Shown: positions 25,138 through 42,835 of the stretch, piece by piece
Layout: every line of letters starts with the position of its first letter
Numbering within the stretch: the first letter of the stretch is position 1
Assembly (NCBI GenBank): GCA_012212665.1
Contig: GCA_012212665.1_4517.1
DNA length: 64,000 bases
DNA from: a phage
Direction: 5' to 3' (one strand)
Notes under the pieces: model-generated
The model's database searches: none
What the model was told of the DNA's origin: nothing
The model's input: the letters and a program-made list of their open reading frames with translations, nothing else
Program-made: the position numbers and the translations under genes

Positions 25138-25659
25138 TTAGTAACCATTATCCTGACGTTCAAAGTTGTGTTGGTTTTTCAAGTAGTAAAGTTTAAAGAT
25201 TTCTTCAGCAGAAAGACCAAGACCTTGGAACATATTTAGAACGAAATGCAGAATATCAATCATTTCAAATTTAATTTCAAGCTGGTCTTCAGGAGACAGT
25301 TCATCGATACGACGATTTCGATATTCAGCATGTTGTGCTTTCCATGGCTTCCATACACTGCTAGCGGCTTTTTCACCATTGCTCATACCACCAAGTGAAG
25401 TCAGCAGTTCACGGAATTCATCATCAATATAATCTTTCTGATTACGCAGCCAATCAACAACATCACCAGCAGTAGCCAATTCATCAGGATGTTTGTTATG
25501 TTCAGGCTTGTCATTTGCCAGACGAACCTGTAAAGATTTCTGCATATCAAGCATTACCTGCAGTGGGTCTTTATCTTCGTGAATCAGAGCATTAAAATAA
25601 GCTTCTTCTGCTTTATCAACACCAGAAATAAGTTGTGAACATTCATTAAAGTGCGCCAT
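25138..25659 (-). CDS. 56: dCTP pyrophosphatase gp56 (MazG-like dCTPase/dUTPase)
   Basis: Near-identical blocks to T4 gp56 (MAHFNEC, DPLQVMLDMQ, ETAGDVV.W.R.QKD.IDDEFRELLTSLG, SPEDQLEIKFE..DI.HFVLNMF.GLG); start at MAHF. Confidence 0.9.
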   Translation of the reverse strand: MAHFNECSQLISGVDKAEEAYFNALIHEDKDPLQVMLDMQKSLQVRLANDKPEHNKHPDELATAGDVVDWLRNQKDYIDDEFRELLTSLGGMSNGEKAASSVWKPWKAQHAEYRNRRIDELSPEDQLEIKFEMIDILHFVLNMFQGLGLSAEEIFKLYYLKNQHNFERQDNGY

Positions 25660-33526: not shown

Positions 33527-34075
33527 TTAACGAGCCCATTTGATGATTTCTGTAATCAAACCATTACGTTCGCTTGCATTAAATCCTATAACTTTGTTAG
33601 CACCATCATGATTAAGTAATTGATATGTTTGGATTTTGTTATGAATTGCAAACTCTTCAAAATGTGAAATGACTGTATTAAAACCGAATGAAGACAAAGT
33701 AATAAGGTCGTCTTCAAAACTTTCAGTCATTTCATTACGTGTTAAAATAATTGTGAACACATCATGGTTTTGGCAAAGACGAACATAGTCCTGTTCATAA
33801 ACGTCAAGAACCGAGTCCGCATCTTGTCGAATACGTCCATAAACCCAGTTACTAATATATCCACGGTCTAACAGATAAATCTTAGTAGGGTCTAAATAAT
33901 TCAACATCGTTTCGAAACAGCCAACTTCATTTCGAGACTTAACATCGAAACGTCCATCAACTGTTCGTTTAGGGAAATCAATCTTTACATATCTTTCACT
34001 AATTTCCATTATGTCATTAATGAAAGTTGTTTTACCAGCATTATCTGGGCCGTCTACTAAAATAATTTTAGCCAT
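33527..34075 (-). CDS. P-loop nucleotide/nucleoside kinase-like protein (thymidylate kinase / dNK fold)
   Basis: 182 aa; Walker A GPDNAGKTT and LLDRGYIS (DRY/DRH-like) motif; part of the uvsX-43 insertion. Confidence 0.5.
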   Translation of the reverse strand: MAKIILVDGPDNAGKTTFINDIMEISERYVKIDFPKRTVDGRFDVKSRNEVGCFETMLNYLDPTKIYLLDRGYISNWVYGRIRQDADSVLDVYEQDYVRLCQNHDVFTIILTRNEMTESFEDDLITLSSFGFNTVISHFEEFAIHNKIQTYQLLNHDGANKVIGFNASERNGLITEIIKWAR

Positions 34076-34076
34076 T

Positions 34077-34976
34077 TTATTCCTCGATTACGACATCTTC
34101 GTATTTAGGTATATTATACGGTGAAGAAATTAAAGCATTAAAGTAGATGAACTCACCAAGACCTGGATGGAATACTTCTTCAGGATTTTCGAAATATTGA
34201 ATCTTCGGACGTCCTTTAAGAATTTGATAGTACTCAGTTTTAGTTGGATTAAAAATTCGAATCAGCGCTTCTTCAGGATACTTATTTCTGTCGAAGCTAT
34301 TATTTGGATCGGTTATATAAAGCGGTTGACCTAATTGAATTGCACATTCAACCACTTGTTCAAAACGATAACATGGGTCACTAATTCGAAATGGATGAAA
34401 AATACCATCTAGATGAATAGGAGCCAAATCACCTACAAGACGCTGCATGATGGAAGGACGTATAACTTTCTGAGTTACGATAATCTTATTACCATCTGCA
34501 CCTGCGTTAACCAGCACTTCCTTTTGACGTTCATTCAACACAGTAGTTTGAAGTGAACGATTAACTGACAACATATCGGTTTTTAAGAATTCATCAATAT
34601 AAAAGCGTGGTTTATTAGGGTCTGCAGTGATATTGAAATTGAATTCTACGTCAAAAGCGCCATCATATCCAGTGATATCTGTGATTAGAAAATCACAATC
34701 ATAATAAGCAATTAATGAATCAACAACAAATTCATTTTCAGACCAGAAATATTTACGAGTGTTATACGCGTTATCTTTATACCATAATGGAACAAACTTA
34801 AATTCTGGGAAAAGACGTTCACATTCTTTAATATCAGATGCATTACGTGGATATGTAATCACATCACCCGGATTAGCACGGTGCAAATGAAGTTGGAAGT
34901 TGCCATCCTTAAGGATAGCATACTGTCCAGTTTCATAAGACCGCATACTCAAGATTGGTACGCGGAAAATAGCCAT
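34077..34976 (-). CDS. Hypothetical protein at the T4 beta-gt locus; candidate modification transferase
   Basis: 299 aa, no recognisable motif; occupies the position of beta-glucosyltransferase between uvsX and gene 42. Confidence 0.4.
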   Translation of the reverse strand: MAIFRVPILSMRSYETGQYAILKDGNFQLHLHRANPGDVITYPRNASDIKECERLFPEFKFVPLWYKDNAYNTRKYFWSENEFVVDSLIAYYDCDFLITDITGYDGAFDVEFNFNITADPNKPRFYIDEFLKTDMLSVNRSLQTTVLNERQKEVLVNAGADGNKIIVTQKVIRPSIMQRLVGDLAPIHLDGIFHPFRISDPCYRFEQVVECAIQLGQPLYITDPNNSFDRNKYPEEALIRIFNPTKTEYYQILKGRPKIQYFENPEEVFHPGLGEFIYFNALISSPYNIPKYEDVVIEE

Positions 34977-35692
34977 TAGTCAAGGAATCCTTTAACATAA
35001 TCAAAATCACGTTCAAACACATGGGCACTTACCATGGTATGAGTATAATCACCAACTTCTACACCGCATTCGTTAGCGATATAATGAAGTAATTTTCCTT
35101 GGAGATAAAAATCCAACTGCATAACAACAGCACAGTTCTGAGAACGCATATGGCAGTGGGTATAAAGCTTACCATCACGAATATAATAAGTCACTGAGTC
35201 AGTACATGGATATTCAAGTGTTTCGTCCGAATCAAGCAAAGCCTGATCAGAACTTTCTAGAATTTGGAACACAACTCTTCGAGAGTTAGGTTTCTCTTTA
35301 AGTTCTTTTAGAAGAGCTGGTAATTGGGCCGCAATGCGAGGACCATAGAAAGTGTTGAAGTTCGCCGGCAAAGCGTCTGATTTAGGTTTAGAAATAAATT
35401 TAGCGACATTAGGATATGCCTTAAACGCTTCTTCTGCATCAGTACCACCAGAAATCATAAACTTCCAGAAGTCTTCGGCATATTCATAAGAGATGCGGTT
35501 AATACGTGGGTCGGTCATTTTGAATGATGATGGATTGTCAACAACTACTGTCATGGACCCAATTTCATTACAACGTCCAATACGAGAATCAGTTACGAAT
35601 TCAGGGTTTTCTAAAATTTCACGATTGACTGCTTTAAATGCGGTTTGAAAATCTGCGGCTTTGATATATTTCATTGTGTTATGTTTTCCCAT
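34976..35692 (-). CDS. 42: dCMP hydroxymethylase gp42 (thymidylate synthase family)
   Basis: 238 aa; active-site region YPCTDSVTYYIRDGKL...HMRSQN aligns with T4 gp42 (FMCTNTVQYLIRD...NMRSND). Confidence 0.85.
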   Translation of the reverse strand: MGKHNTMKYIKAADFQTAFKAVNREILENPEFVTDSRIGRCNEIGSMTVVVDNPSSFKMTDPRINRISYEYAEDFWKFMISGGTDAEEAFKAYPNVAKFISKPKSDALPANFNTFYGPRIAAQLPALLKELKEKPNSRRVVFQILESSDQALLDSDETLEYPCTDSVTYYIRDGKLYTHCHMRSQNCAVVMQLDFYLQGKLLHYIANECGVEVGDYTHTMVSAHVFERDFDYVKGFLD

Positions 35693-35734: not shown

Positions 35735-35974
35735 TTATTTGAATTTCTTGGCAATGTTGATATAACGTAAAGCTTCAGAATCTATACTTCCAAGAACACT
35801 ATGAAGGAATGCATCAGTGTAGTATTCCAATTGAACAGGTTCTTTAATCACTTTAGCCGCTTTGGTTTCAAACAGGCCCATAAGGGCCTTTTTAAGAATT
35901 TGTTCGTTAGTGTTCAGTTTCATAGTCAAAATCTCTTCGTTAAGTTTATAATTAAAACTTTTTCTAGAAATCAT
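35735..35974 (-). CDS. Hypothetical protein (imm position, but not hydrophobic)
   Basis: ORF of 79 aa between gene 42 and the Cys-rich protein. Confidence 0.4.
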   Translation of the reverse strand: MISRKSFNYKLNEEILTMKLNTNEQILKKALMGLFETKAAKVIKEPVQLEYYTDAFLHSVLGSIDSEALRYINIAKKFK

Positions 35975-37131
35975 TCCGGGTACCTCAAAGCGTCATCAGA
36001 GTTAGTTATATCAATAATAGATATGGAGTTTTCTGCTAACCCGTTTTTAGATAATTGACGTTTATAATACCTTTCACAATATGTACACGTTGACCCACAG
36101 ATTTCATTAGCACAATCAAAATCTGGGTGTCTGAACCACCTTTTTTCTAAAAAGCCATCTAACAAAGAGGTTTCAATATTTACTGTATGTGAAAACTCAG
36201 TCTCATTTTCAAGAGTGAAAATAGTCTCTAAAGGCTTCCACAGTTCTAACAAATTACCTTCAAACTTTTCAGAAGCGTATGCTTCAAGAACTTTCAAAAT
36301 GTAGTCTGTGCTACCTGTACGTCCTGAAACTTTGAATTGAGTGATACCAATATCATTATAAAGTTTCAAATCTTGAGGACGAACAAAACGAGTTCTCAAC
36401 CAGTTAAATGGGTCTGTATCACGAGCTTTAATACAGTGCTGCATAGGATATCCATTTAAGGATTTAGCATCGTCAGCGGTAACATCAGTACTATGGAAAA
36501 TATAGCAAGAGTCACGATAGCTACAATGTGTTGTATACCCTTTACCAGCATTAGAACAGAACTCATTTACAAGAACTTCAAATATTATATTGTTCTTATT
36601 GCAAAACTCTGCTGCACGCTTCAGGAAAGAAACTGAACGGTTCTTATGAATTCCGCAGCAGACCTTTTTGATGTTATATTGGTCATGTAAGTATTTGATT
36701 TGAGTTACAGCATCGACATGTAGAATTGTTGAAACTTCAATCTCAATATCTTTATTGACTTCACGAACAATTTCCATAACAACAGGGTTAGCGATAGTAA
36801 TACGCCATACGCCTATTGACCAAAGATACTGAACATAATCCTGAATAGCTTTCTTCTTCCACTCAACTAGTTCTCTTTTTGAACCAGGATTTATCGTGTT
36901 GAGTGTATAGTTAAAGCAAATACCTAATTCGTTACAACGTTTAACGTAGTCTTCTAACATCTTTTTGTCAACGTCAGGAAGCCTAAAATCAGGTCTGGCT
37001 GCTACAAAAGCCATTTCTCTTGTAGAGCCATATACTTCGTTTATCAAGCTATTAGGATAGGTTTTATTGAGCTCTACGATTTTATCAAGAAGAGCTAAAT
37101 CAAAATTCGTTCCGATTTTAAAAGTATTCAT
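35971..37131 (-). CDS. Cys-rich putative metalloenzyme (possible peptidase U32-like / Fe-S protein)
   Basis: 386 aa; C-terminal CANEICGSTCTYC cluster (C-x4-C-x3-C-x2-C) and EVLVNEFCSNAGKG block loosely resembling the U32 family signature; assignment tentative. Confidence 0.45.
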   Translation of the reverse strand: MNTFKIGTNFDLALLDKIVELNKTYPNSLINEVYGSTREMAFVAARPDFRLPDVDKKMLEDYVKRCNELGICFNYTLNTINPGSKRELVEWKKKAIQDYVQYLWSIGVWRITIANPVVMEIVREVNKDIEIEVSTILHVDAVTQIKYLHDQYNIKKVCCGIHKNRSVSFLKRAAEFCNKNNIIFEVLVNEFCSNAGKGYTTHCSYRDSCYIFHSTDVTADDAKSLNGYPMQHCIKARDTDPFNWLRTRFVRPQDLKLYNDIGITQFKVSGRTGSTDYILKVLEAYASEKFEGNLLELWKPLETIFTLENETEFSHTVNIETSLLDGFLEKRWFRHPDFDCANEICGSTCTYCERYYKRQLSKNGLAENSISIIDITNSDDALRYPE

Positions 37132-37191: not shown

Positions 37192-37593
37192 TTATAGATT
37201 CGGTTTATACGATTTAAATGTTTCGAATTCGCCTTTATTCATAAGAGCTTTGAATTCGTCAGGACGCATAGCTTTGTCGTCGATAATCCAATCATATACT
37301 GGTTTATGTGTTAGCAAATTATGGTACTTCAAGCCAATGTTTGCCAAGTTCTGAATCAGACTTGGGAGAATGTCAATTGCTATACGACCAGGACCTACTG
37401 ACTTCATACCGCGAGCAGTGTAAAGCGTTATGGTATGCCCTGCATCATACAGGGCATTAATGGCGGTCACCATTTCGACGTCTGGTTTGAAGTTCACATA
37501 ATCACGATTGTTATTCCACTCTGTTATACAATCATCGACATCAAAACAAAGATTAAGCATGTTTTCTACACGGTGCATTAGATTCGTTCCCAT
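37192..37593 (-). CDS. HAD-superfamily phosphatase (KdsC-like small sugar-phosphate phosphatase)
   Basis: 133 aa; motif I FDVDDCIT (DxDx[TV]) near the N-terminus. Confidence 0.55.
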   Translation of the reverse strand: MGTNLMHRVENMLNLCFDVDDCITEWNNNRDYVNFKPDVEMVTAINALYDAGHTITLYTARGMKSVGPGRIAIDILPSLIQNLANIGLKYHNLLTHKPVYDWIIDDKAMRPDEFKALMNKGEFETFKSYKPNL

Positions 37594-39266
37594 TGATGAG
37601 TGATATCGCCACCGATTGGACGATAGGAAACACCAGTTTCTTTATCAGTTAGTACCCATTTACCAGGATTTTTTGTAATCAGAGTAGCCGTTACAGGTTC
37701 TGCTACGTCATAACTAATAGAGCCGTCTTGAAGTACACGGCCCATGTTACGTAATTGCTTAGTCAGAAGTTCCATACCTTTATAATATGCGGCAACCGCT
37801 TTAAGTGGATTATTCTTGAAATAACCACCTAATGCAATCCAGATAATTGCTACTGCCAAATGATGATACTCGTTAAACGAACTCATCTTTCCATATTTGT
37901 AAACTAATGGATTGATGTTAATAGTCACATTACAAGTTGTTTCATCAATAGTAAACTGACCCCAGGTCGGATTAGCATTGAATTCATCATAACCTGAAAC
38001 AGCATAAAGCACTTTAGCTTCATCATACAATTTTGGCCCGTAAATCTTGGTTTCACCAAAATATCCACGAGGGTCGATAAACTTGACTTCGCCGTTATCG
38101 GTAATCATAGTATTACTGAAGTTCGGGTCACCATGAATAACAGAGTACTGTCCCTGAGAACGGTTATGATAACGAATAAGATGTTCTAAAGCTTGTTTCA
38201 ACATTGGCTTCAGACGTCCAATCTTAGTGTAGTTCACATGTGTGATTTTACCAAATGAATCAATCAATGGCTGAATGCTTTCACAACGATCAATAACTTT
38301 CGTATAGAACTCTTTAGTGAAATCACGGCGAACAGTTTCAGGACTTACAAAATAAGTGTCCGTGCTGAATTTCAGTGCATCTAAAATTGCATCAACAATT
38401 TGTGGACGAGCAAGACTTGATTTGGATTTAATATATTCAAATGCCGGCTTACCTTTAATGCGTTCCATAATAAAGTGGCCGCCAGGATGATAACTTACAA
38501 TCCGTGGAACTGAATCTGATTTAACTTTCTTATACCAATTGACTTCATCTTTTTGAAGTGCAACGCCCTGTTCTGTTAAAGCAATCTTTGTTACAGTTTC
38601 TTCGCCAATTTCAACTGCATTAAAACTACGATTCAGTTCACGAACTTCATGAGCCTTTTCAAGTTTAGGCATATCACCTAAATCAATTAGATTCATAAGC
38701 TCTGATTTATTGAATGCACTGCCGTAAAGGAATTCTACGAAATCACGACCTTTGCAGTATTCGTGAATTTCCTCATCAGTAGAACCCATGTAGAATTCCC
38801 AGTCTTTGAACTGATAAATTCCTACAACATTACCACCTGTTGAACCTACGTTAGTGATATTTTCACCATCGAAATTATATCGACATTCATCACCCTTAAC
38901 ATAGATTGCGTTAACATTCCAAGACCATGAACCAAAGTCAGGAATAATATCACACCAGTTAACAATTACGTTATGGCCATCTAAATCTTTGTATAATTTA
39001 GCAAGAGCATAAGCAGAACCATACGCTTCATCAACTGTACGAATAGTCACATTGAACCCTTCTTGCTCGCAATAAGCTCGAACAGTTTCAGCAAATTTTG
39101 AATGAACTACTACAATAATTTCATCTGCGCCAAGGTCAGAATAAATTGTATACAAATTGCTCAGAATAGTGTCTTGTTTATAGTTAACAAGCACCTTAGG
39201 AATATGGTGCGTTATTGGATACAAACGAGTTGCCAGTCCAGCACCAAGAATAACAGCTTTTTTCAT
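37578..39266 (-). CDS. Bifunctional sugar-1-phosphate nucleotidyltransferase / anomeric sugar kinase (APH/choline-kinase fold)
   Basis: 562 aa; N-terminus KAVILGAGLATRLYPIT (G-x-G-T-R-L nucleotidyltransferase); C-terminus VIHGDPNFSN...FIDPRGYFG (APH/ChoK catalytic motifs). Confidence 0.7.
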   Translation of the reverse strand: MKKAVILGAGLATRLYPITHHIPKVLVNYKQDTILSNLYTIYSDLGADEIIVVVHSKFAETVRAYCEQEGFNVTIRTVDEAYGSAYALAKLYKDLDGHNVIVNWCDIIPDFGSWSWNVNAIYVKGDECRYNFDGENITNVGSTGGNVVGIYQFKDWEFYMGSTDEEIHEYCKGRDFVEFLYGSAFNKSELMNLIDLGDMPKLEKAHEVRELNRSFNAVEIGEETVTKIALTEQGVALQKDEVNWYKKVKSDSVPRIVSYHPGGHFIMERIKGKPAFEYIKSKSSLARPQIVDAILDALKFSTDTYFVSPETVRRDFTKEFYTKVIDRCESIQPLIDSFGKITHVNYTKIGRLKPMLKQALEHLIRYHNRSQGQYSVIHGDPNFSNTMITDNGEVKFIDPRGYFGETKIYGPKLYDEAKVLYAVSGYDEFNANPTWGQFTIDETTCNVTININPLVYKYGKMSSFNEYHHLAVAIIWIALGGYFKNNPLKAVAAYYKGMELLTKQLRNMGRVLQDGSISYDVAEPVTATLITKNPGKWVLTDKETGVSYRPIGGDITHQWERI

Positions 39267-39307: not shown

Positions 39308-39451
39308 CTAGTTAAAGCATTCATACTTTGCTTGTAGTCCAATCATAATCCATCCGATTATAAGAGTCGGAATCATTACTGGAGCCGTTAAGCTCCAGTA
39401 GATAGTCATGACAAGCATCAATAGTAAAAGTCCTATTGTTATTGCTTTCAT
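39308..39451 (-). CDS. Small hydrophobic peptide (47 aa)
   Basis: Unannotated ORF MKAITIGLLLLMLVMTIYWSL...; its ATG overlaps the TGA of the SIS gene (ATGA). Confidence 0.3.
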   Translation of the reverse strand: MKAITIGLLLLMLVMTIYWSLTAPVMIPTLIIGWIMIGLQAKYECFN

Positions 39452-40083
39452 TGTTCGCCTCGTAACATGGCACCTAGTGCACCACCAGGGTGGAACTTAA
39501 GGAAGTCATTAGAGGTAAATCCACGTTCAGACGAAAGGTTGATAGCAAACGTATCGATAAGCGCTAACAACAATGTAGTGGACATGGTCGGAGCCAGAGA
39601 ATTCTCATCAACCTCTACCGCGATGCCTGTACAGAACGTATAATCAAAAAGAGCTTCGTATTCTTGCGGAATGTCAGGGTTACAATGTAACAGAATCTGT
39701 TTAACCTGAGGACGAATCATACGAAGATGTTTAGCAACACCTATCATTTCTTCAGTCTTACCAGAACGACTGATGTGAACTAATACATCATTAGGCGCAA
39801 TGAATCCTGCATCACCGTGAGAATAATGCCCGGTGTTCAAATACATGCTAGGAATACCTAGTGAAGCAAAAGTCTCGGAAGCTTTAGTTGCGATATTAGC
39901 GTTCTTACCAACACCTGTAATAATTACTCGGCTTTCATAATTACTCAGTCCAGGGCGACGAAGAGTTTCAAGAATAGCATTATATCGGGCAGAGTTTTGA
40001 CTAATTACTTTAGCCATAGTGGCAAGAGATGAAGCTTGTTTTACGATTGCGTCAATAGCGATAGTGATTGGTGTAGTTTTCAT
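39448..40083 (-). CDS. SIS-domain sugar-phosphate isomerase, arabinose-5-phosphate isomerase (KdsD/GutQ)-like
   Basis: 211 aa; motifs ITGVGKNANIA, HGDAG, SRSGKTEE, APTMSTT, FHPGGALG align with the KdsD SIS domain; no CBS domains. Confidence 0.75.
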   Translation of the reverse strand: MKTTPITIAIDAIVKQASSLATMAKVISQNSARYNAILETLRRPGLSNYESRVIITGVGKNANIATKASETFASLGIPSMYLNTGHYSHGDAGFIAPNDVLVHISRSGKTEEMIGVAKHLRMIRPQVKQILLHCNPDIPQEYEALFDYTFCTGIAVEVDENSLAPTMSTTLLLALIDTFAINLSSERGFTSNDFLKFHPGGALGAMLRGEQ

Positions 40084-40123: not shown

Positions 40124-42835
40124 TCAAAAATCGAACATATCGAACAGAGATGCTTTCTTCTCGTAATCGAGTTTCGCTGCTGATGTGAATCCTTCAAGTG
40201 GTTTAATAAATGTCTTCTCAAGGAGAACAGTGTAGTCCATCCAATGAAGTACGTCGTCTTTAATTAAATCTGTGATTTCAGTACCAGAAGGCCATGCGAT
40301 ACATTTATCACCGAATGGGTTTCCTTCACGTAAAGGCAGAACATATACTTTTTCACCTTCTACAACTTGTGGAGCATCAATATTACCTTTGATAGCTCTG
40401 TTATATGTCAGAATTCCACGAATATGGAACGGGCATTTAGGACCAGGGAATCCACCAACGTCGTATTTAGCAATGTTATTCGCAGAAGATACTGACGCGA
40501 TGCTAATATAATTCAATTGACGGAATTCTTTTTCAAACTCTTTAAAATATTCTTGTAATGATTCTTCACCTTCCTGAAGCATACGACGAATACATTCCTT
40601 AAGAGCTTTCTGTACTGCTTTAGGAGTCGAAGATTTCTGTGTTTCGAGACCCATGATTTTGAGTTTAGGCTCAGCGTAACGAGTACCTTCCATATCCCAC
40701 ACGTTTAATGCATAACGTTTCTTACCTGTCCAAAATCCGCCAATACCTTTAGAACCAAGCGGAGGACCAGCGATAGCTTCTCGGTCCATGAACATTAAGT
40801 GTTGTTTATTGTTCATGTATTCACACATTTCACAGAAACCTCTATCAATAGCTGGTTCCATACGTTCACGTGCAAACTTATCTAAGAAGTCTACCCAATG
40901 GTTGGTATCACGGAATTTAGATTCACCAACCTTATCGATAATTTTATCAGCAGATACGTAAATAGAGTCTGTATCACCATAAAGAACGAAAGCTTCACCT
41001 TCTGTACCGCAAACTTCGTTCAGATATTCATTAACTTTACGTTCAATCCACTGTAAAGCCATTTGCCCGAATGTTGTGATTGCAGTTGCATTACGCAAAT
41101 CATAATAACGGAACCAAACGTTTCCAAGTGCACCATAAAGCGAGTTGATGAGCAATTTACGGTTAATCTGTGCAGTCATACCTGCAACTTCAGTACGTTG
41201 AGCTCTAAACAACATTTCATTAAGAGATTTAGCAGACAACTTTTTAATCTTTTCTTTAATCTCATCACTGAAGTCAAAACGATAATCAACGTCTAATGGT
41301 TCATCAACAGAAAGATTAGGATTATGTAAGGCTTCTTTAATTATTTCACCATTACGTTGAGCTGCAAGCATGTAACCTTTATGTTCTTTACGTTGATTAA
41401 AGACCTTAGTGATTTCAGTTGGAACTACACCATCACGGTCTTTATAATACATCATGCCGTTAGGAGAGCAACTGTACACATCTGAAGGACGTTCAGCGAT
41501 TGCGTTAATATAATCATGCAATGGAGCTACTTTAAACGTTCCTGCTATTGTTTCTGGGCTAATATTCACTTGGCGAATAATACTTGGATACAGAGATGTA
41601 AGGTCGAAACTCATTACATATTTGTATCGATTTGGAATAGGTTCCTTAACAAAAGCGCCAGGATAAGGTTGAACCGGGTGAGAACGACCTTGTGGAATCA
41701 CCTTGTTCTGCTCTTTAAGGCTATTAAAAATAATAGCATCCCATGTTTTAATTGGACTGAACACGGATTGAATCTGAATTTTAGCATAATAACCCATGTC
41801 CAAACTCAAGTTAATGAACTGGCGTTTAGCATCAATTTGCAATACACGATATACGTCGATGATGTTATAAGAAATATATCGTTGATGATTGCTTTCACGA
41901 AGTTTAGAAATAGGACCGTCATATTTCAGTTTACCAACGTTCAATTCAAATTCTGAAATGTAATCCAGAGAATATGACGGTTGGTTCGTGAAAGAGAACT
42001 TTTTGTAAAGGTCAATATAATCAAGAACAGAGATACCAAACAATGTAATGATTTCACGAGAACCATACATGTTTTCGATAACTTTAACACGAGTTTTACG
42101 ATGTGGTGATAAACGTTTCGCAGTAGATTCGCCAAAAATATTCTTGATTCGGTTATACACATATGGAATATCAAATGACTCAACGTTCCATCCAGTCAAA
42201 ATGACAGGAGTTTTCTGTTGCCAGAAGTTGAGATATTCCATCAACAATTCTTTTTCATTATCGAATGGCATATAAATGATTTTATCGATAATTTCGGATG
42301 GAACTTCATCACCACCTTGTTCTTGAAGCTTAGCCGCAATTTCGATAGACCATTCTTCCACATTACCGTATGGAGAATTCAATAGATCAAATACGTAGAA
42401 CCTGTCGTCAATTGAGTCATAATGGGTGATAGCATCAATCGGATGTTTTGCTTGTGACGGCTCAGGGAACCCATCCGGAGATGTTACTTCGATGTCGAAG
42501 TTAGCCACACGAATTTTTGTATGGTCGTATTTGATTTCATAGTTATAAGTGTCAGACAAATACGCCAATTTGAAATCGTCCATGCCAAGTGCTTCAAGTC
42601 CGATATCTTCCATGCGTTTAATCCATTGGGAGGCATCACGCATATTAGCGAACAACTTACGAGTACACGGTTTACCGTAGATATCGAAATATTTCGTAGC
42701 CTGGCTTTCTGGACAATGAGCAAACAGTGATGGTTTATATTCTACTTCACGAGTACGTTCACGACCATTAGAATCGATGTAACGTTCAAAAATTGAATCA
42801 CCAATCTGTTCAACCGTTAAGTAAAATTCTTTCAT
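40124..42835 (-). CDS. 43: DNA polymerase gp43 (family B)
   Basis: 903 aa; exonuclease and polymerase motifs (FDIE, YGDTDS, K.KK.YA); T4 synteny regA-43. Confidence 0.95.
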   Translation of the reverse strand: MKEFYLTVEQIGDSIFERYIDSNGRERTREVEYKPSLFAHCPESQATKYFDIYGKPCTRKLFANMRDASQWIKRMEDIGLEALGMDDFKLAYLSDTYNYEIKYDHTKIRVANFDIEVTSPDGFPEPSQAKHPIDAITHYDSIDDRFYVFDLLNSPYGNVEEWSIEIAAKLQEQGGDEVPSEIIDKIIYMPFDNEKELLMEYLNFWQQKTPVILTGWNVESFDIPYVYNRIKNIFGESTAKRLSPHRKTRVKVIENMYGSREIITLFGISVLDYIDLYKKFSFTNQPSYSLDYISEFELNVGKLKYDGPISKLRESNHQRYISYNIIDVYRVLQIDAKRQFINLSLDMGYYAKIQIQSVFSPIKTWDAIIFNSLKEQNKVIPQGRSHPVQPYPGAFVKEPIPNRYKYVMSFDLTSLYPSIIRQVNISPETIAGTFKVAPLHDYINAIAERPSDVYSCSPNGMMYYKDRDGVVPTEITKVFNQRKEHKGYMLAAQRNGEIIKEALHNPNLSVDEPLDVDYRFDFSDEIKEKIKKLSAKSLNEMLFRAQRTEVAGMTAQINRKLLINSLYGALGNVWFRYYDLRNATAITTFGQMALQWIERKVNEYLNEVCGTEGEAFVLYGDTDSIYVSADKIIDKVGESKFRDTNHWVDFLDKFARERMEPAIDRGFCEMCEYMNNKQHLMFMDREAIAGPPLGSKGIGGFWTGKKRYALNVWDMEGTRYAEPKLKIMGLETQKSSTPKAVQKALKECIRRMLQEGEESLQEYFKEFEKEFRQLNYISIASVSSANNIAKYDVGGFPGPKCPFHIRGILTYNRAIKGNIDAPQVVEGEKVYVLPLREGNPFGDKCIAWPSGTEITDLIKDDVLHWMDYTVLLEKTFIKPLEGFTSAAKLDYEKKASLFDMFDF

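Follow-up and report, generated by a model that had tools for sequence, protein, structure and literature searches.

What does a phage do with a single polypeptide that joins a sugar-1-phosphate nucleotidyltransferase to a kinase? The question is raised by a gene in a 64,000-nucleotide stretch of phage DNA (GenBank assembly GCA_012212665.1, contig GCA_012212665.1_4517.1; the whole stretch is called the window below), for which a first-pass annotation had proposed a fusion of such a nucleotidyltransferase with a kinase of the APH/choline-kinase fold. With a probability of roughly 0.8, this gene is the Mosigvirus (RB69-type) orthologue of RB69 gp52:53, DLP3 gp82 and HY126 AfhE, and its product is a bifunctional enzyme of the uridine diphosphate (UDP)-D-arabinofuranose pathway for arabinosylation of 5-hydroxycytosine in DNA. 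The fusion was correctly observed and is not new. The activity, which had been taken for unusual and unrecognised, is already known: the merged open reading frame (ORF) was described in 2018 (PMC6024577), and the two-domain assignment and the biochemistry of the counterpart AfhE followed in 2025-2026 (PMC13326640, citing He et al. 2026). The gene itself is as follows.

37578..39266, minus strand: nucleotidyltransferase-kinase fusion gene, a single intact ATG-to-TAA ORF of 562 aa (stop codon included in the coordinates), orthologue of RB69 ORF053c+052c (gp52:53)

A GAGGA ribosome-binding site lies 7 bases 5' of the ATG. The ORF was recovered by tblastn in 374 phage records, in 364 of them near full length, and is therefore not a chance reading frame. 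The encoded protein is 97.3% identical in amino acid sequence to RB69 ORF053c+052c over the full length, the part that matches ORF053c (aa 1-218) being 100% and the part that matches ORF052c 95.6% identical. By alignment counts, 15 substitutions and a one-residue indel separate it from RB69 gp52:53; all are within the kinase half, and nothing substantive differs. PHROG 4098 matches the protein over its full length (E=6e-294). Identity is only 43-57% to the versions of Dhakavirus and Acinetobacter phages, 57% to the counterpart in phage DLP1, a relative of DLP3, and 54% to the Thanatos homologue TH1_060. In public records the protein is labelled 'hypothetical protein', 'bifunctional protein GlmU', 'NTP transferase domain-containing protein' or 'capsular polysaccharide biosynthesis protein'.

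The boundary between the two domains was placed near residue 205 by the secondary structure of the predicted model. The N-terminal part comprises the following features.

38652..39266, minus strand: N-terminal nucleotidyltransferase domain of the RmlA/MurU/LicC/HddC type, aa 1-205 (by Pfam, profile and Foldseek)
39222..39245, minus strand: NTP-binding signature GAGLATRL, aa 8-15, aligned to AAGLGTRL of LicC
38664..38684, minus strand: D195-L-G197-D-M-P-K201, the [D/E]xG[D/T]xxK/L motif that closes the nucleotidyltransferase domain, with G197 invariant

Pfam NTP_transferase (PF00483) matched aa 3-99 with 38.2 bits (gathering score 21.2), and it was also matched by 36 of 46 homologues. When the family profile, built from the 46-sequence alignment (A1) from which all motif and invariance counts given here derive, was searched against solved structures, its positions 1-166 matched the nucleotidyltransferase HddC (6jq8) with E=1.4e-18. 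The best single-sequence match of the domain was LicC, a CTP enzyme. The full-length AlphaFold model was confident, with a predicted local distance difference test score (pLDDT) of 92.1 and a predicted template modelling score (pTM) of 0.89, and the latter, calculated over the full chain, implies that in the model the two domains are packed in a defined way. In a Foldseek search with the full model MurU (4y7u) came first (E=4e-9, TM-score on the target 0.65-0.69, 223-227 aligned columns, MurU itself having 216-224 aa), and the listing was led by MurU, RmlA, GDP-mannose pyrophosphorylases, HddC and LicC. The NTP-binding signature corresponds only approximately to the GxGTRL motif that had been reported, since the second glycine is replaced by alanine; at least 90% of the homologues retain G10 and R14. 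K24 and D106 are invariant, and we infer a role in metal binding for D106 and the [D/E]xG motif. The latter, D195-L-G197, is presumably the counterpart of the DxGT motif in RmlA-type enzymes. A phmmer search of solved structures found no structure of AfhE or of a close relative.

The C-terminal part was more difficult to assign.

37737..38651, minus strand: C-terminal APH/choline-kinase-fold kinase domain, aa 206-510 (by profile and fold)
38544..38588, minus strand: K227 (ATP-binding lysine of strand beta-3) through E241 (glutamate of helix alpha-C), both invariant
38112..38135, minus strand: catalytic loop (Brenner motif) H378-G-D380-P-N-F-S-N385, aligned to HNDfsanN of APH(2'')
38064..38078, minus strand: I397-D398-P-R-G401, the metal-binding Asp motif (counterpart of DFG in protein kinases), aligned to 'ID' of APH(2'') and RIO2

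With the kinase half as a single sequence all Pfam scores were below threshold (APH 17.0 versus 23.2, Fructosamin_kin 16.7 versus 22.4, EcKL 16.1 versus 22), and ABC1 scored lower than APH. Among the 60 listed structure matches of the full-length profile there were only nucleotidyltransferases and no kinase, and the same was true of the Foldseek matches listed for the whole model; therefore, the C-terminal part was modelled alone. The bilobal fold of kinases was then found. Pfam APH (PF01636) was matched by 19 of the 46 homologues at E<0.01 (best 2.2e-10), and a kinase-only profile (A6) matched the APH(2'') structures 3uzr/3ham at profile positions 16-194 with E=2e-6, in an alignment spanning the distance from the beta-3 lysine to the metal-binding 'ID'. 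In this alignment K227 falls on the 'vvK' lysine of APH(2''). The Brenner motif HGDPNFSN is exact, and its residues H378, G379, D380 and N385 are invariant, as are all five residues of I397-D398-P-R-G401. Thus, one ATG-to-stop frame does fuse the two domains, and both were detected by profile methods as well as by fold. The fold results independently reproduce the assignments made by Lee et al. for the model of RB69 gp52:53, in which the N-terminal domain resembles MurU and LicC and the C-terminal domain resembles 3ham and 6hwl (PMC13326640).

The proposed function depends on the partners of the gene. About 150 RB69-group phages of Escherichia and Shigella match the 4.3-kb region at 96-98% DNA identity, and the window is an RB69-like Mosigvirus. 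The placing of the gene in a phage DNA-modification context was borne out: the block from uvsX to gene 43 is collinear with RB69 ORF045c-055c at 90-100% identity, and the isomerase, the HAD phosphatase, the 5-hydroxy-deoxycytidine monophosphate (5-hydroxy-dCMP) synthase and the DNA glycosyltransferases are all present in the window, 90-100% identical to the RB69 versions.

39448..40083, minus strand: SIS-domain arabinose-5-phosphate isomerase, 211 aa (RB69 gp55; Pfam SIS; 96.2% to RB69 ORF055c)
37192..37578, minus strand: HAD-superfamily phosphatase, 128 aa (RB69 gp51, counterpart of AfhF; 98.4% to RB69 ORF051c)
34976..35692, minus strand: thymidylate-synthase homologue, 5-hydroxy-dCMP synthase (RB69 gp48; 99.6% to RB69 ORF048c)
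34077..34976, minus strand: putative first DNA arabinosyltransferase, 299 aa (RB69 gp46:47; 99% to RB69 ORF047c and ORF046c; function according to Table 1 of PMC13326640)
12389..13489, minus strand: putative second DNA arabinosyltransferase (RB69 ORF003c, gp3; 99.2% to ORF003c; function according to the same table)

The SIS protein matched the NCBIfam models KpsF/GutQ (E=8.5e-32) and KdsD (E=3e-30). Within the sequence TAATG the fusion gene's stop codon and the ATG of the HAD gene overlap; the HAD protein matched the NCBIfam model 'capsule biosynthesis phosphatase' (E=5e-13), and its DxD, TAR and DDK motifs are conserved. The order of fusion gene and HAD gene is kept in Lazarusvirus (Acinetobacter), Thanatos (Shewanella), Dhakavirus and Marfavirus (Klebsiella) phages. 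In domain order, in approximate length and in having the same neighbours (SIS isomerase, HAD phosphatase, 5-hydroxy-dCMP synthase and glycosyltransferase) the fusion protein agrees with RB69 gp52:53, DLP3 gp82 and HY126 AfhE, described as arabinose 5-phosphate (Ara5P) 1-kinase/UDP-D-arabinose pyrophosphorylase. A scan for promoters and terminators was uninformative, promoter-like sites being fewer than in shuffled sequence.

Arabinose was found in RB69 DNA by Thomas et al. in 2018 (PMC6024577). According to Lee et al. (2026, PMC13326640) the modification of RB69 and DLP3 is mono- to tri-arabosylated 5-hydroxycytosine rather than hydroxymethylcytosine; 5-hydroxy-dCMP is made by the thymidylate-synthase homologue, an activity marked as experimentally confirmed for RB69 gp48 in their Table 1. 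The same authors assigned to gp52:53 an N-terminal UDP-arabinose pyrophosphorylase, forming UDP-arabinose from arabinofuranose (Araf) 1-phosphate, and a C-terminal kinase, reported GmhB-like fold matches for the phage HAD protein, and equated gp52:53 with AfhE of coliphage HY126. As relayed there from He et al. (2026), AfhE phosphorylates Araf5P to Araf-1,5-P2 and has nucleotidyltransferase catalysis (NTP and sugar 1-phosphate to nucleoside diphosphate (NDP)-sugar and pyrophosphate), and AfhF is a Mg-dependent HAD phosphatase that converts Araf-1,5-P2 to Araf-1-P.

The following pathway can be proposed; the ORF, the folds, the catalytic motifs, the RB69 orthology and the gene partnership were computed in this work, whereas the substrate, the order of the steps and the use of UTP come from the literature. 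The SIS isomerase, encoded upstream, would convert ribulose 5-phosphate of the host to D-arabinose 5-phosphate. The C-terminal APH-fold domain would use ATP to phosphorylate the anomeric C1 hydroxyl, yielding arabinofuranose 1,5-bisphosphate, and the HAD phosphatase, encoded downstream and coupled translationally, would remove the 5-phosphate. From arabinofuranose 1-phosphate and UTP the N-terminal RmlA/MurU-type domain would make UDP-arabinofuranose. In the last step the 299-aa protein and the gp3 homologue would transfer arabinose to 5-hydroxycytosine, the adjacent thymidylate-synthase homologue having supplied this base in the form of 5-hydroxy-dCMP. The activities of the fused domains would thus catalyze the second and the fourth step, which are not neighbours because the separate HAD phosphatase acts between them. 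The first-pass annotation had envisaged conversion of a free pentose through pentose 1-phosphate to the NDP-pentose, with channelling of the substrate between the fused domains. The protein is indeed implicated in the formation of UDP-arabinose. The reported route is a different one (Ara5P to Ara-1,5-bisphosphate to Ara-1-P to UDP-Ara), and with a phosphatase step in between direct channelling is probably not what the fusion serves.

UDP-D-arabinofuranose is not a normal metabolite of enterobacteria, and it is this enzyme that lets RB69-type phages coat every cytosine with arabinose. As established in the literature of 2018-2026, the arabinose coat allows escape from restriction enzymes and CRISPR nucleases.

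Since the phosphatase acts between the activities of the two domains, the logic of the pathway matches the NDP-heptose pathway (GmhA / HldE or HddA / GmhB / HddC) and not AmgK/MurU salvage. In both the phage and the heptose pathway a SIS isomerase is followed by an anomeric kinase producing a bisphosphate, a HAD phosphatase and a nucleotidyltransferase. HldE also fuses a kinase and a nucleotidyltransferase that catalyze non-consecutive steps. The nucleotidyltransferase domain of the phage protein is homologous to HddC (see above), whereas its kinase has the APH fold; the kinase of HldE has the ribokinase fold and HddA the GHMP fold. Further differences are the substrate, a C5 furanose rather than a C7 heptose, and the domain order, nucleotidyltransferase then kinase. 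AmgK/MurU and LicA/LicC, to which the fusion had been likened, are separate proteins that catalyze consecutive steps on an unphosphorylated substrate and are only 9-19% identical to the phage protein, in which the domains are fused, the reported substrate of the kinase carries a 5-phosphate and a phosphatase step separates the activities. Other sugar kinases of the APH fold, namely 5-methylthioribose kinase (2olc, 2pyw), N-acetylhexosamine 1-kinase (4ocj), maltokinase (5jy7) and glucosamine kinase (6hwj), show 9-16% identity, and none of these four is fused to a nucleotidyltransferase. We know of none among them that acts on a sugar phosphate. By analogy, the phage enzyme would combine the folds of AmgK/MurU with an HldE-like logic, without being a member of the NDP-heptose pathway.

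Several observations weigh against the assignment to UDP-arabinofuranose synthesis. A measured activity of the window protein or of RB69 gp52:53 was not found in the literature consulted. The biochemistry of AfhE is known second-hand through PMC13326640, and the window protein is placed in the biochemically defined AfhE family by the equivalence to gp52:53 published there. Table 1 of the same paper gives an alternative order, in which the phosphatase acts first and the kinase acts on free arabinose. In the Thanatos study no identifiable activity was obtained in vitro with TH1_060, the homologue of the fusion protein, whereas a different Thanatos protein, TH1_063, made UDP-xylose from xylose-1-P and UTP. 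The counterpart of TH1_063 in the window is the 299-aa protein, which is 47% identical to a 300-aa protein of Thanatos-2 (L089 7961-8863) of the same kind; therefore, there is a competing candidate for the nucleotidyltransferase step. The literature is in conflict over this protein, which is arabinosyltransferase 1 according to Lee et al. (PMC13326640) and a UDP-xylose pyrophosphorylase according to the Thanatos study. In addition, specificity for UTP is not evident from the sequence, because the closest nucleotidyltransferase match, HddC, uses GTP.

These points bear on the alternatives to different degrees. If the HAD phosphatase acted first, it would release free D-arabinose from Ara5P, the kinase would phosphorylate this at C1 and the nucleotidyltransferase would use the product directly, so that the fused activities would be consecutive and channelling would be possible. 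Such a salvage order would agree with the use of unphosphorylated substrates by AmgK/MurU, LicA/LicC, NahK and methylthioribose kinase, which are relatives in fold, and fused enzymes of consecutive steps are the commoner pattern. It is also how Table 1 of PMC13326640 words the steps, gp51 being labelled 'dephosphorylates Araf5p to Ara' and the C-terminal domain 'phosphorylates Ara to Araf1p'. The text of that paper, however, relays from He et al. that AfhE converts Araf5P to Araf-1,5-P2 and that this bisphosphate is what AfhF dephosphorylates. Since the same four activities are required in either order, gene content does not discriminate between the two, and the coupled HAD partner fits both. 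We regard the salvage order as unlikely. It is quite unlikely, too, that the same architecture serves another product, a GDP-, CDP- or dTDP-sugar or another pentose such as xylose or ribose. In this direction point the best profile match, the guanylyltransferase HddC (E=1.4e-18), the best single-sequence match, the CTP enzyme LicC, and the low identity (43-57%) to the Dhakavirus and Acinetobacter phage versions. Against it stand the arabinose in RB69 DNA, the adjacent SIS protein, which is an arabinose-5-phosphate isomerase of the KdsD/GutQ type, and the structural matches of the phage glycosyltransferases, which are mostly UDP-sugar enzymes (PMC13326640).

Two further explanations have almost no weight. 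The RB69 GenBank record AY303349 annotates two overlapping coding sequences (ORF053c and ORF052c), from which it could be argued that the long ORF is an artefact and that two genes are real. Thomas et al. (PMC6024577) noted that ORF053c fell about 300 residues short of its homologues in other phages, showed by recloning that a one-base sequencing error had split a single 561-residue gene, and obtained one protein band of about 561 residues on expression of the merged gene. The frame is near full length in the window and in 364 of the 374 phage records, and the bacterial and archaeal homologues are likewise single ORFs; resequencing and the conserved single frame rule the split out, and two separate genes were rejected. 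Activation of choline or ethanolamine by a LicA/LicC-like kinase and cytidylyltransferase, in which no sugar would take part, was also rejected as extremely improbable: identity to enzymes of this type is only 9-19%, the partners in phages as well as in cells are a sugar-phosphate isomerase, a HAD phosphatase and glycosyltransferases, and the DNA modification of these phages is arabinose. Our preferred assignment thus remains the Ara5P 1-kinase/UDP-D-arabinose pyrophosphorylase that acts through the bisphosphate.

Is the fusion special to phages? It is not. Thomas et al. had already pointed out prokaryotic homologues that are highly diverged; five carry the annotation GutQ, and a Butyrivibrio example has a C-terminal SIS domain (PMC6024577). 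A database search returned 138 relatives of the fusion protein, and a scan of one genome per species, with a 9-sequence alignment as query, gave 196 confirmed bacterial and archaeal relatives. The carriers include Clostridia, Lachnospiraceae, Alistipes, Massilia, Phenylobacterium, Helicobacter, Butyrivibrio, bacteria of the candidate phyla radiation, Micrarchaeota and Thermoplasmata, and the identity of their proteins to the query is 24-29% across a region reaching from residue 1 to about 505. Gene neighbours were counted at the 80 loci that were kept. A HAD-like gene of about 125 aa was present in 71 of these, nearly always directly 3' of the fusion gene, and a SIS gene was close by in 42. 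Phage and cellular HAD profiles aligned with an hhalign probability of 87.6% (E=3.5e-6), and their DxD, TAR and DK motifs coincided in the alignment; by BLASTP, by tblastn or by hhalign with a single-sequence query the similarity was not significant. Between the SIS proteins of phage and cells the identity is 33%. Because widespread cellular loci carry homologous HAD and SIS partners, the partnership of the three genes is ancient and cellular, and the fusion is no phage innovation.

Several distant relatives of 892-955 aa (30-33% identical) have HAD, SIS, nucleotidyltransferase and kinase domains, arranged in this order, in one chain. Four-domain chains were seen in P0080, P0082, P0085, P0087, P0089 and P0093 (loci L002 and L003), one of which comes from a eukaryotic transcriptome set; the four activities in these single chains are those of three adjacent genes in the window. 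The contig of the L002 chain also carries XRN exonuclease and NFACT genes, and a related two-domain protein (L005) lies on a 146-kb contig with giant-virus-like genes (2C_adapt, patatin, tRNA-synthetase). Judged by these neighbours, the two contigs resemble DNA of a giant virus or a eukaryote. Next after the HAD gene, cellular cassettes have the gene of an unannotated protein of about 315 aa (L004 9897-10835; L012 4542-5489; L021 7888-8883). The L012 and L004 proteins are homologous (E=1e-9) and have a '...RSGviDy..GG' stretch in common. The protein had no Pfam match and no BLAST similarity to the 299-aa phage glycosyltransferase; it may be the cognate transferase. The cassette of Alistipes finegoldii is flanked by a large serine recombinase on one side and a UvrD-like helicase on the other, and may therefore be on a mobile element.

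Fragments or full copies of the fusion gene, 97-100% identical, have also been deposited as proteins of Dyella japonica, Luteibacter rhizovicinus, Escherichia coli and Shigella sonnei (P0121, P0125, P0129, P0134). The Dyella japonica copy (L008) is on a contig of 385 bp (NZ_JPLA01000184.1), and several other deposited copies are on contigs of about 170 kb. These copies are most likely phage DNA inside the bacterial assemblies.

One part of the protein does appear to be confined to viruses.

37581..37736, minus strand: virus-specific C-terminal tail, aa 511-562, 52 residues (...ATLITKNPGKWVLTDKETGVSYRPIGGDITHQWERI)

In the family alignment all 21 viral or viral-like homologues have the tail, and the remaining 24, which are shorter, lack it. 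Among close phage relatives it is the most conserved part of the fusion protein: in the five closest homologues it is 77-90% identical, whereas their kinase domains are 58-71% identical, and in one homologue (P0002) the tail reaches 90% identity, the nucleotidyltransferase domain 77% and the kinase domain 71%. No Pfam family matched the tail. Modelled as part of the full-length protein the tail had a pLDDT of 55-75, which rose to 80-87 in the domain-only model. A tentative and rather doubtful interpretation is that the nucleotidyltransferase-kinase/HAD/SIS module represents a widespread but uncharacterised pathway by which cells make NDP-D-arabinofuranose or a related pentofuranose, that T4-like phages captured this module from cells, and that the tail is a viral addition through which the enzyme could bind to the HAD phosphatase, or else to the DNA glycosyltransferase or the replication machinery. 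If this were true, docking would hand over the bisphosphate intermediate without diffusion.

The other genes considered in the window are the following. Along the minus strand, in the order of transcription, the cluster begins with gene 43 and ends with the thymidylate-kinase-like gene.

40124-42835, minus strand: gene 43, DNA polymerase
39308..39451, minus strand: strongly hydrophobic 47-aa ORF (MKAITIGLLLLMLVMTIYWSLTAPVMIPTLIIGWIMIGLQAKYECFN) between the SIS gene and the fusion gene
35971..37131, minus strand: U32-family 'peptidase' (RB69 gp50), located after the HAD gene and before the 5-hydroxy-dCMP synthase gene
35735..35974, minus strand: 79-aa ORF, with the misleading public label 'P-loop NTPase'
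33527-34075, minus strand: thymidylate-kinase-like protein
25138-25659: dCTPase

The ATG of the 47-aa ORF overlaps the stop codon of the SIS gene (ATGA). RB69 has a shorter, 36-aa version (ORF054c), and a counterpart is present in JS98. Public labels are misleading for other members of the cluster as well: the HAD phosphatase is mislabelled 'phosphoheptose isomerase' in PHROG 1238 and in several RefSeq records, and the 299-aa protein is annotated as 'RNA polymerase binding protein' in GenBank records.

The U32 gene differs from the fusion gene in its distribution. It is absent from the DLP1 and JS98 loci, and no Acinetobacter phage appeared in the organism tallies or in the records listed for the U32 search, compared to 57 Acinetobacter phage records with the fusion gene. 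It is very strongly conserved and was found in 222 phage records, all with at least 82% amino acid identity, which include Klebsiella, Yersinia, Proteus, Serratia and Shewanella phages, whereas the adjoining nucleotidyltransferase-kinase of the same U32-carrying phages is only 42-54% identical to the window version. Lee et al. labelled the gene only as 'sugar or heterocycle reductase', without discussion (PMC13326640). Other U32 proteins (RlhA, TrhP, UbiU/V) carry out O2-independent hydroxylation, including the formation of 5-hydroxycytidine and 5-hydroxyuridine in RNA. The phage U32 gene may provide an anaerobic route to 5-hydroxycytosine that backs up the O2- and flavin-dependent synthase.

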